A stretch of 64,000 nucleotides of DNA from Felis catus (lineage: Eukaryota). The notes below the pieces were generated by a model. It was not told where the DNA came from. It was given only the letters and a program-made list of their open reading frames with translations, and did no database searches. The stretch covers positions 55,182,001 through 55,246,000 of the forward strand of contig NC_058368.1 in the NCBI RefSeq assembly GCF_018350175.1. The letters are read 5' to 3'. A program made the translations under genes and the position numbers. Shown here one piece after another: positions 46,020 to 50,070 of this stretch (positions are counted from its first letter, which is position 1; the number at the start of each line of letters is the position of its first letter).

Positions 46020-46261
46020 TTATTTTTTTATTTTAATTTTTTAAATTTTTTGTTTATTTATTTATTTTGAGAGAGAGCTAGAGAGCATGTGTGTGCATGG
46101 GGGAGAGGCAGAGAGAGATGGGCAGGGAGAGAATCCCAAGTAGGCTCTACACTGTGAGTGCAGAGCCCTACGAAGGGCTTGATCTCATGAACCATGCTTG
46201 ATCAAGACCTGATCCAAAATCAAGAGTGGACTCTTAACCAACTGAGTCACATAGGAGACCC
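46020..46261 (-). mobile_element. CAN-SINE (older)
   Basis: Degenerate TSD ACATTC..ATTTTATT. Confidence 0.9.
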
Positions 46262-47903
46262 ACATTCATATTTTATTAAACAAACTGATAGAAAAACATG
46301 AAAATGTTAACCTTGGTGTGTACCCAGAAGACTGTTAAATTTGAAATCCTTAAGCTGGGAGTGTTAGAGTTCCCCTGCACCCTTCCTCTCTCTGGACTGA
46401 GCTGGTTGGCTCACTAGACACTCTGGCCTGTGCATTCTCACTTTGCCCAGAGTACCTTGTAAACTGACAGCAGAGCTACCCTTTCAGACCACCACTCTGC
46501 CTTTTGTTAGCCTCCATGTTTCATCTGAACTTGCCTGGCATTCCTAAACAATCTTCAGATCCTTGTCTAACCTCATCCATCCCTCCTTCTCCAGCTTTTA
46601 ACCCATCCATGACTCCCCATCACCTGGAGATTGAGAAGACCAAACTCTTGCTTCAACCATCAGTCAGCTGGCCCTGGTTCCCTCTTATCCTCTCCCTCTG
46701 TTTGTTCCAGCACCTTCAAGAGTATGGCTCATTTCCTGGACTTTCCCATCTCCATAGTTTTTGAAGTTTCCATTCTCTGGATCACTTTTTCTTTGTGGCC
46801 CTCCCCCTACAGCATCCCAGAGCAGAAGTTTACTTCCCTTATTCCATCCAGGCCTCCTTGATTTTGTGGAGGAGATTAGCACATATGCTGTGTTCTGCCT
46901 GATGTCCAGATACCTGGGAAGGTACTATGGTCCTCAGTTGACTTGGTTGGCTCATCCATCTCCCAGTCTGCTGGCTTCTCCCAATACTGGAAATTAATAC
47001 TGGCACCCAATATTCCTATTTTCCTCAAGGAGGGTAGGGCATGAGCAACCCACCTCTACTCCTAGCCAAGATGCTACTTCCTCCTACCCCTTCTTCCCCA
47101 ACAGCTACACCACCCCACCACCCCCACAGCCCTATGCCCAAATCTCCTGGAAGATCTCACAGAAGTGATTAGAGCAGCTGGTCCATGAGATCCCTCCTTC
47201 CAGAGAGTCTCTTGAGATACAGAAGTGGATAGGGCAGCTCATGTCAAGAAGCAGAGAACTACAAGTCTTATTTTTCTTCTTCCAATTAAGCACTGAAAAT
47301 TTTACCTACACACCTTGTAAATTCATATAATAACTAGCTGACATCTTCATCAGCTCCTCCATCAAAAACTTAGTTCCTACTCTCCTGGGATAAAGGACGT
47401 CAGGGAAACCACTTAGCACTTTGTTCACTCAAACACTCACAAGGAAGGCCAAGCAACGTGATTATCATATTATTTACGTATTTATACAAACAACAAAAGT
47501 ATAACCTAATTACCATAAGAGTCATATTTATTTCAGCAACTCGGTTGAGTATGATTCCCTTCCAAATAAAAGGTTCACTTTATGTATTTGAAGGAAAATT
47601 ATCTTGGGCTTCATATTTCAAAGAATAATTAAGTCTCAAATGTGTATCTTTAATAGTCTAAAGTTAAAGGTGATATGTATTTTCTATTTGGGCATTTATA
47701 GTTAAATGTATGAATTTGAAGGATTTTAAGCAAGATGTCAACATAAGAAACAACAAGCTTTAATTCCCACCCCTCTTTCCTCTTTACAATCTGACAGAAG
47801 TGTTCAAGGGAGAATAAGAATAAAAATAAAATATGGAAGAGGGGTCTTAATCAGTGTCAAAAACAAAAGAATTAGGGCTGTCCGTGGAGGCAGCCTCTCA
47901 GAT

Positions 47904-47913
47904 GGGGCTTTCC
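47904..47913 (+). promoter_or_regulatory. NF-kB consensus motif in the retrocopy leader
   Basis: GGGGCTTTCC fits GGGRNNYYCC; motif only, function unknown. Confidence 0.4.
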
Positions 47914-48325
47914 TATGTCAAGACCAGTAAGAAGAAAGCATCCCTGGTGTCCCAAACAGAGTGCAGGACTGGGACTAGCCAGCTGAGGCGAGGCAGCTAC
48001 ACAGGGACTGCCAGGGTCAGAACCACAATAAATCCACTAACAGAAGAAATATTCTGCTATCAGTCTGGCAACCTGCACTGGGTAACAAATGCCCTACAAC
48101 TGGAGGAAGATCTACTTGTGTTATCAGTGAAGCCCCACGAAGGCCCCATAATTACGAAAGACTACCTACAAAACAAGGAAAAGCACCATGAAGAAATTTG
48201 TTTTTTGACAAGATCAAAACACTGAAACTGTACCAATCCCAGAGATCACAGAGCCCTGCCCCACCTGTGCCTGGGAACTGGCTGCATTTGCCAAAGACCA
48301 TCACACCTCAGCCTTCAGATCTTTG

Positions 48326-48366
48326 AGTGGTCAGGAGTGGACTCAACCAACTGAGCCACACAGGCG
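48326..48366 (-). mobile_element. 41-bp 5' (tRNA-head) fragment of CAN-SINE inside the APOBEC3Z3 retrocopy
   Basis: Reverse complement CGCCTGTGTGGCTCAGTTGGTTGAGTCCACTCCTGA matches the SINE head; removing it restores IF-A-x-x-LY. Confidence 0.8.
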
Positions 48367-49087
48367 CCTTCTGCCTGTACTTCCACTTGCGCTGGAAGTA
48401 TCATCAGGGGCTGAGACATCTGCAAACATCTAGGATCCCAACTGCTGTCATGAGCTGCCTGGAGTTTGGGGACAACCAGCTGGAGGAAGTTTGTGGACAA
48501 CCAGGACAGGAATTTTCAGCCCTGGGATGATAACCTGGAGCAATATAATAACAGCATAAACTGACAACTTTGGAGGACTTCGGAAATATGAAACTTGGAT
48601 GACCATCACCCCCCACACACACCCTCCCACCCCCAGCTAGGAAGCGATTCAAGAGGACTGTTCCTGCAGCATCTCAATGTTTCATAAACTGACTCTTAGG
48701 AAGAAGTTGTAAACTCCATAGGCACACTTGGCCCTTGCCTGAATCCAGAAAACCTTTCTTTCCTTCTTCATTCTTTTGTTTTCTAAGTGTGCATATATTT
48801 TTATATTAGAAGAAACAAAAATAATTTTTAAGTCTGTAAAAAAGAATTAAGATAAAGCAAATTGTTCAAAATTCATATATGTAAATTTTTCAGATATATG
48901 ACCACTGATTGCAAATTGAGGGGAATGCCTAGGTATTAATTCCCACCCTACAGATGGCATGAACGTTGTGAGTTGTTGCATGAACTAGGAAAAGGAAATT
49001 GTGATGAATCTCAGAGCATCACATAAACTGTAGGGTGGGGAGAGTCAAAGCTGATAACTGGTCACAGGGCTGATGACAATTTCTGAC

Positions 49088-49818: not shown

Positions 49819-50070
49819 TTGTTTTTAAAATTTTTTTTTTTACATTTATTTATTTTTGAGAGACAGAAAGAGACAGAGCACAAGTGGGGGAGGGGCAGAG
49901 AGAGAAGGAGACAAAAATCTGAAGCAGGCTCCAAGCTCTGAGCTGTCAGCAGAGAGCCCGACGCGGGGTTCAAACCCACAACTGTGAGATCATGACCTGA
50001 CCCACAAACCGTGAGATCATGACCTGAGCTGAAGTCGGATACCCAACTGACTGAGGCACCGAGGCGCCCC
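49819..50070 (-). mobile_element. CAN-SINE with a 26-27-bp internal duplication
   Basis: TSD AGCAGGATATTTCT; CCCACAA..GTGAGATCATGACCTGA twice. Confidence 0.94.

Follow-up and report, generated by a model that had tools for sequence, protein, structure and literature searches.

Introduction

Pseudogenes of carnivore APOBEC3Z3 (A3Z3, A3H) have been published (PMC6955324; cited in PMC8266076), as has the argument that a retrocopy can be read as a fossil of its parent (PMC7263822; reviewed in PMC7830460). According to Ito et al. 2020, duplicates of A3Z3 in Carnivora, almost all of them pseudogenised, were fixed at least twice (PMC6955324). The copies of arctoids are termed duplications rather than retrocopies in the accessible sections of that paper, where they carry no date. 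In primates, A3I (40 MYA) is an old A3 retrocopy proposed as a fossil of its parent, and A3G retrocopies are described in New World monkeys (PMC7263822).

In this study, we analysed a 64,000-nt stretch of cat DNA, here called the window, and found in it a dead, non-coding A3Z3 retrocopy. The parent lineage is that of feline A3Z3/A3H (Munk et al. 2008, PMC2397500), with which the copy agrees in the 5' UTR primer site and the layout of domains; the described gene, however, has five exons, lies on chromosome B4, is intact and Vif-sensitive, whereas the copy is intron-less, located elsewhere and dead. Like the cat copy, the arctoid pseudogenes are disabled and lie outside the CBX6-CBX7 locus, and they have states in common with it at residues 90, 104-105 and 138-139 as well as, via the database protein P0002, a 5' UTR frame. 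The felid copy has many indels and contains a SINE fragment, whereas the reading frame is kept in most arctoid rows, with a stop at residue 90. The canid A3Z3 pseudogene (dog chr11) is, like the cat copy, a second disabled A3Z3 of Carnivora outside the locus. Since it carries dog-specific states in the published alignment, it is younger and independent, and it looks like a further fossil, of canid A3Z3 and of younger age. Its row (dog chr11:1.02 Mb) runs over exon borders into the codons of the next exon and looks processed. The primate copies differ in that their parent is A3G and not A3Z3 and that some of the monkey ones keep open reading frames and restrict retroviruses, whereas the cat copy cannot encode a deaminase.

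The dataset of Ito et al. contains no felid A3Z3 pseudogene; cat, cheetah, leopard, tiger and puma are represented by one A3Z3 row each. The copy described here adds a member to the published carnivore A3Z3 pseudogenes. In the literature searched, with subscription journals and browser annotations outside its scope, we found no description of a felid A3Z3 retrocopy or of a pre-crown date for one, and no mention of seven pseudogene scaffold names; prior notice of the felid copy is possible. The fossil framing put forward in the first-pass annotation of this DNA is not new, as Ito et al. 2020 already cover the carnivore pseudogenes and Yang et al. 2020 the molecular-fossil argument, for primate A3I.

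Results and discussion

Identity and structure of the copy

The stretch from 47875 to ~48843 on the forward strand holds a nearly complete copy of an A3Z3 mRNA without introns, and the whole element including flanking repeats extends over 47865-48849, more than the 48028-48602 of the first-pass annotation. Its decayed coding sequence (48028..48602), delimited by length, amino-acid identity and dog primer sites, measures 575 nt from start to stop, compared to 2,237 bp over the four coding exons of cat A3H, which also has one untranslated exon (PMC2397500), so that the introns are gone. Consistent with this, the frameshift-tolerant alignment of copy and proteins is colinear, with a largest gap of 41 nt. 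The published forward primer for cat A3H matches at 47885 (16/20 nt), the dog start primer at 48023 (21/25) and the dog end primer at 48576 (18/21), in each case at the best site of the window; with the cat 5' site and both dog sites matched, the copy is nearly full length.

APOBEC models of Pfam match four of the five frame pieces (best E 8.9e-6), and all eight PDB matches of the first frame piece are A3H-sized chains, six of them named A3H. Frameshift-tolerant alignment gave 47-58% amino-acid identity to each of ten intact arctoid A3Z3 domains, the protein comparison set, from which cat and dog are absent. By descent, the copy belongs to the Z3 class, with HEE at 48187, PCPTC at 48254 and its best similarity to A3H/A3Z3; the Z2 domain of P0006 and P0012 matched the copy over 18 aa only, at E>0.3. 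The TWS preceding PCxxC, kept in 10/10 intact proteins, is deleted in the copy. Protein searches with single pieces returned the window's own frame or no match. No further A3 pieces were found in the 64-kb window, and a phage search of the window gave no match. Cat A3 is located on B4 (PMC6955324 Dataset S3; PMC2397500), and the copy lies away from its parental locus, as expected of a processed pseudogene.

The locus is no assembly artefact, since the full stretch 46800-49050 is present in 20 of the 24 listed sequencing runs, from one organism and 10 studies. Fourteen of these 20 runs are flagged as possible source of the window; six, from four studies, are unflagged.

Decay and coding capacity

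The start codon ATG now reads ATA at 48028. The aligner placed frameshifts at ~48091 (+1), 48128 (-1), 48199 (-1), 48246-48254 (net -22), 48302 (-1), 48325 (+41) and 48474 (+4); an eighth, near 48565-48575, was read from the frames rather than from the aligner. A further in-frame insertion (+3) lies at 48526, a premature in-frame stop, seen against all ten proteins, at 48562..48564 and the terminal stop at 48600-48602, the end of the coding sequence. The HxE remnant at 48187..48195 reads HEE, where intact genes have HAE in the alignment to intact proteins. By alignment, a beta strand is lost together with the TWS ahead of PCxxC in the net 22-nt deletion (48246..48254). PCPTC itself, retrieved by motif search, is followed by A-W, the W being residue 90 (48254..48274). 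Since HxE and PCxxC lie in different frames, the copy cannot encode a deaminase. CpG observed/expected amounts to 0.15, and the copy would have decayed neutrally since insertion, presumably without present function. There are about nine indels in its 575 nt, compared to none in the zinc domain of most arctoid rows of the published alignment.

The 41-nt insertion at 48326..48366 is the antisense 5' head of a carnivore SINE (minus strand), identified from matches to SINE ends throughout the window, without target-site duplication or tail. It best matches a SINE 2.1 kb upstream (46220-46255) in the same orientation, with a score of 46 against 39 for the next, and shares 2-3 nt with its target at one end. 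It is possibly a locally templated repair insertion, and it is absent from the arctoid pseudogene rows of Ito Dataset S3. The 4-nt insertion at 48474..48477, by repeat comparison and alignment, rebuilds a 10-nt word whose other copy lies 26 nt downstream (48470-48505), which suggests templated repair; local templating is likely here.

The seven motifs that the first-pass annotation had read from the copy are all present and spread over three frames: KPHEG (48130), LQNKEK (48166) and WRKFVD (48481) in the first, PCPTC (48254) and KDH (48293) in the second, and LYFH (48375) and LRHLQ (48411) in the third. Of the cat states that it gave for comparison, PCPFC, KDN, LYVH and LRHLH are found in the cat sequence of Ito Dataset S3 (PMC6955324), a row that ends ahead of the WRKFVD position, and those at P37-E38 and L47-R48 match PMC4930625. 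That dog has several of the retrocopy's states is likewise borne out by the dog row, which opens at the E codon of LQNKEK and reads PCPTC, NDH, LYFH and LRHLQ.

Among the ten intact arctoid proteins, H stands at the KPHEG position in 6/10, LQNK in 10/10 and LQNKKK in 9/10. Since H and LQNK recur in this way, KPHEG and LQ read as old states. We had considered KPHEG a change after insertion, as P0004 has R at this position, a reading rejected in view of the H of those six proteins. The E of LQNKEK, in turn, is probably convergent with dog, since K is present in eight arctoid pseudogene rows and in the intact arctoid proteins, and E otherwise in canids only.

A 124-codon open frame at 47851-48225 has no ATG, opens at GTG, begins in the flank and crosses the UTR out of frame, and was rejected as a gene on these grounds. 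That it encodes a new short protein, or that the copy is a functional retrogene, is hardly conceivable from the reading frames. A frame of 91-157 aa does recur in three database entries (P0001, P0003 and P0004), with one weak Pfam APOBEC3 tag. However, its length varies between the entries by frameshift and stop changes, P0004 has no named Atlas look-alike, and the copy itself combines ATA at the start position with eight frameshifts, the stop at 48562 and zinc motifs that are not in one frame. P0003 has an additional 1-nt deletion near 48104. This flank-starting chance frame has been called as an APOBEC3-tagged protein of 91-157 aa in Logan and ENA assemblies and is a likely source of false annotation.

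Candidate retrotransposition marks and source mRNA

LINE-1 retrotransposition is the standard explanation for such intron-less mRNA copies, with a cut-site consensus of the TT/AAAA type. In the window, the longest word common to both flanks is an A-rich 10-nt sequence, exactly repeated at 47865..47874 and 48840..48849, which constitutes a candidate target-site duplication on the forward strand. An equally long flank word arose by chance in 44/5000 random draws, 33/5000 shuffles and 214/4953 A-rich pairs, thus in 0.7-4% depending on the control. The likely copied 3' UTR (48603..48843) ends in a poly(A) remnant of just 6 A (48838-48843) behind a polyadenylation signal with one mismatch (48820), and the insertion site is A-rich but without TT ahead of the repeat. 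Both the duplication and the poly(A) mark are weak. LINE-1 machinery likely pasted in the copy of the A3Z3 mRNA by target-primed reverse transcription, an origin that we regard as moderately supported.

The copied 5' UTR (47875..48027) likely derives from a short splice form. The distance from the cat primer site to the start codon is 143 nt in the copy, and the pyrimidine-rich stretch ahead of the cat start, known from the linker primer of PMC2397500, is absent from it. A cat A3H splice form with a 5' UTR shorter by 149 nt has been reported (PMC2397500). The spacing and the missing stretch suggest that the source mRNA was this short 5'-UTR form, in which exon 1 would be joined to an inner acceptor of exon 2, assuming that the primer lies within exon 1. 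The UTR frame is also present in the mustelid-like P0002, the only non-self match among 1.84 billion representatives, with 29/45 aa identical.

Age relative to the Felidae

Seven test residues (67, 68, 70, 87, 99, 113 and 127) were defined as positions at which all five felids of the dataset share one state and dog has another. At these residues, the copy has 0/7 of the pan-felid amino-acid states in the published rows. By hand, we counted 21-22 of the 231 scoreable nt as private changes, corresponding to ~9% of bases. Neutral rates amount to 1.5-3e-9 per site per year. At these rates, the excess over a Felidae age of 10.8 My (PMC8437355) is large, with 4-7 private changes expected and 21-22 observed (P<=2e-5), and it persists after removal of CpG sites, where 16/221 private changes gave P<=2e-3 under the same age. 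The rate-based age range is 25-68 My. In light of the 0/7 pan-felid states, the insertion almost certainly predates the Felidae. The first-pass annotation had placed it before the felid radiation, which the absent pan-felid states and the excess of private changes uphold; it probably understated the age.

The ENA protein P0004, of the same 90% cluster, differs at 9/123 aa from the window frame. It begins within the same flank, retains the frameshifts of the copy, has a deletion at the site of the net 22-nt loss and ends at the stop formed at the SINE-insert junction. From the flank start, the frameshifts and the junction stop it follows that a second, diverged lineage carries the insertion. 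It is highly improbable that the copy was inserted recently, within crown Felidae, and decayed fast, or that it is an artefact of assembly: neither accounts for 0/7 pan-felid states and a divergence far over the 10.8-My expectation, nor for a full stretch in 20/24 listed runs and the diverged orthologue P0004. We consider both effectively refuted.

Probable link to the arctoid pseudogenes

The cat-dog divergence is dated to 43-64 Mya (PMC3495650). By hand tally rather than by a computed tree, the copy was compared to eight pseudogene rows of arctoids (ferret, sea otter, red panda, giant panda, black bear, Weddell seal, monk seal and walrus), to three of canids and to 16 rows of intact carnivoran genes in the published alignment; this set did not include the pseudogene row of polar bear or the intact row of sea otter. 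Of 89 codons 77 were scoreable, 12 having been dropped for indels. The tally amounted to 9:1:0 for sites grouping the copy with arctoid pseudogenes, with cats and with intact caniform genes, respectively, and two extra sites match canids alone. The single cat-grouping site is the first base of residue 67. The raw pairwise distance was tried and rejected as a test, being level, with 37 (cat), 38 (giant-panda pseudogene), 43 (red-panda pseudogene) and 47 (dog) differences of 225 nt.

Of the nine sites, those at residues 90, 104 and 138 weigh most. Codon 90 is TGG or TGA in 8/8 arctoid pseudogenes and GAG or AAG in 16/16 intact rows, with TGG in the copy. The third base of codon 104 is T in the copy and in 7/8 pseudogenes and G in 16/16 intact rows, a synonymous G-to-T transversion that is absent from the rhino, bat, whale and buffalo rows. 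Codon 138 is TGC in 5/5 pseudogenes, a likeness weakened by the CAC of the canid pseudogene, and four of the nine sites (53, 70, 105 and 139) are weak or CpG-labile. As an independent control, the canid pseudogene has only one of the nine states in common with the cat copy, a CpG one, in the rows given. Chance convergence has a probability of 6e-7 to 3e-3 if 5-6 of 12 bases are counted and of 0.002-0.09 if three codons are. Furthermore, the arctoid pseudogenes do not have the caniform states of residues 102 and 106 in the published rows, and therefore predate crown Caniformia. P0002 ends in 23 residues that are identical to the peptide encoded at the beginning of the ferret pseudogene row.

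We therefore propose that a single insertion, the same as that of the arctoid pseudogene, probably took place before Feliformia and Caniformia separated (43-64 Mya). The copy would then be, in felids, the orthologue of the pseudogenised A3Z3 of bears, red panda, mustelids and pinnipeds, an orthology that would be drawn from the coding sequence alone. If it holds, the arctoid A3Z3 pseudogene is not arctoid-specific, is older than the cat-dog divergence and is a processed copy.

No disabling lesion common to the copy and the arctoid pseudogenes was found in the rows compared. The residue 90 stop is TGA in 7/8 arctoid rows, with TGG in giant panda and in the copy, and the indels of the copy are unlike those of P0002. 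The lack of a common lesion favours either two origins or a frame still open at the split. An independent retrocopy on the feliform stem, inserted after the split and before the Felidae, whose likeness would reflect a similar early-carnivoran allele frozen in place plus CpG decay, agrees with this lack, with the cat grouping of residue 67 and with rate-based ages down to 25-35 My. Canids show that A3Z3 was retrocopied again independently in the published alignment, and only that younger copy is listed for them (dog 8/8 rows, dingo 9/9, African wild dog 6/6); the same screen missed the old copy in 5/5 felids, too. We nevertheless consider a feliform-stem origin unlikely, as it would require parallel changes of the cat and caniform genes at residues 90 and 105 and a convergent synonymous transversion at 104, whereas the canid control has none of the changes at 90, 104 and 105 and the tally is 9:1:0. 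Two insertions of one stem-carnivoran allele, or a later segmental copy, would give the same age and clade at different loci and fit the common states and the unlisted canid copy without a loss. This is quite improbable, since it takes two events where one suffices, and since the candidate target-site duplication directly bounds the copy.

Under the single early insertion that we prefer, a frame still open when cats and dogs split would fit the lack of a common lesion in the zinc-domain region and the 5' part and the ATG retained in P0002. The fuller reading, in which a retrocopy of stem Carnivora had its frame intact at the split and its felid and arctoid orthologues neutrally preserve a reconstructable pre-crown A3Z3, is tentative and rather less likely than the shared insertion itself. 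If it is true, the parent gene changed at residues 90 (helix 3) and 105 shortly before the crown radiation, and a viral antagonist of Paleocene-Eocene age may have left this trace.

Fossil value and Vif residues

Sensitivity to FIV Vif has been mapped to residues 41, 42, 65 and 66, with 65 as the main determinant (PMC4930625, PMC8437355). Residues 41-42 are I41-I42 in the copy, elephant seal and P0002 and L41-I42 in cat. Residue 65 is T in the copy, a private change, and S in 6/8 arctoid pseudogene rows; S is also present in cheetah, puma, leopard, tiger, dog and bears, while cat has A65, according to the published rows. A multi-species consensus is thus needed, since a single copy misreports this key residue. 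The claim of the first-pass annotation that the single copy records ancestral A3Z3 is not borne out in that form, given ~9% of private bases that include residue 65, and the cat copy by itself is a poor fossil.

Residue 90 is W in the copy but E or K in 16/16 intact rows and 9/10 intact proteins (mink has A). W90 of human A3H is central to HIV-1 Vif binding (PMC10462622), while FIV Vif binds a different surface (PMC4930625). Mammals differ widely at this residue, and the TGG may have arisen from CGG by CpG decay. A W at residue 90 as an ancestral, Vif-linked state may serve as a lead only.

Felid and arctoid copies together would, if orthologous, allow a direct reading of the ancestral states of this rapidly evolving restriction factor where tree-based reconstruction is unreliable, following the argument made in PMC7263822. 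They would polarise the FIV Vif determinants, with likely I41-I42 and S65 against L41-I42 and A65 of cat. No new antiviral gene or mechanism emerges from the copy, and its pre-Felidae age alone dates no arms race.

Sequence surroundings

The window is AT-rich mammalian DNA, full of SINEs of the carnivore type. Metagenome scans for stray carnivore DNA gave none. Just upstream of the copy, a 1.1-kb stretch (46300-47400) is GC-richer and CpG-poor and is possibly an old LTR or LINE remnant. Downstream, at 49974-50027, a SINE contains an internal tandem duplication of 27 nt.
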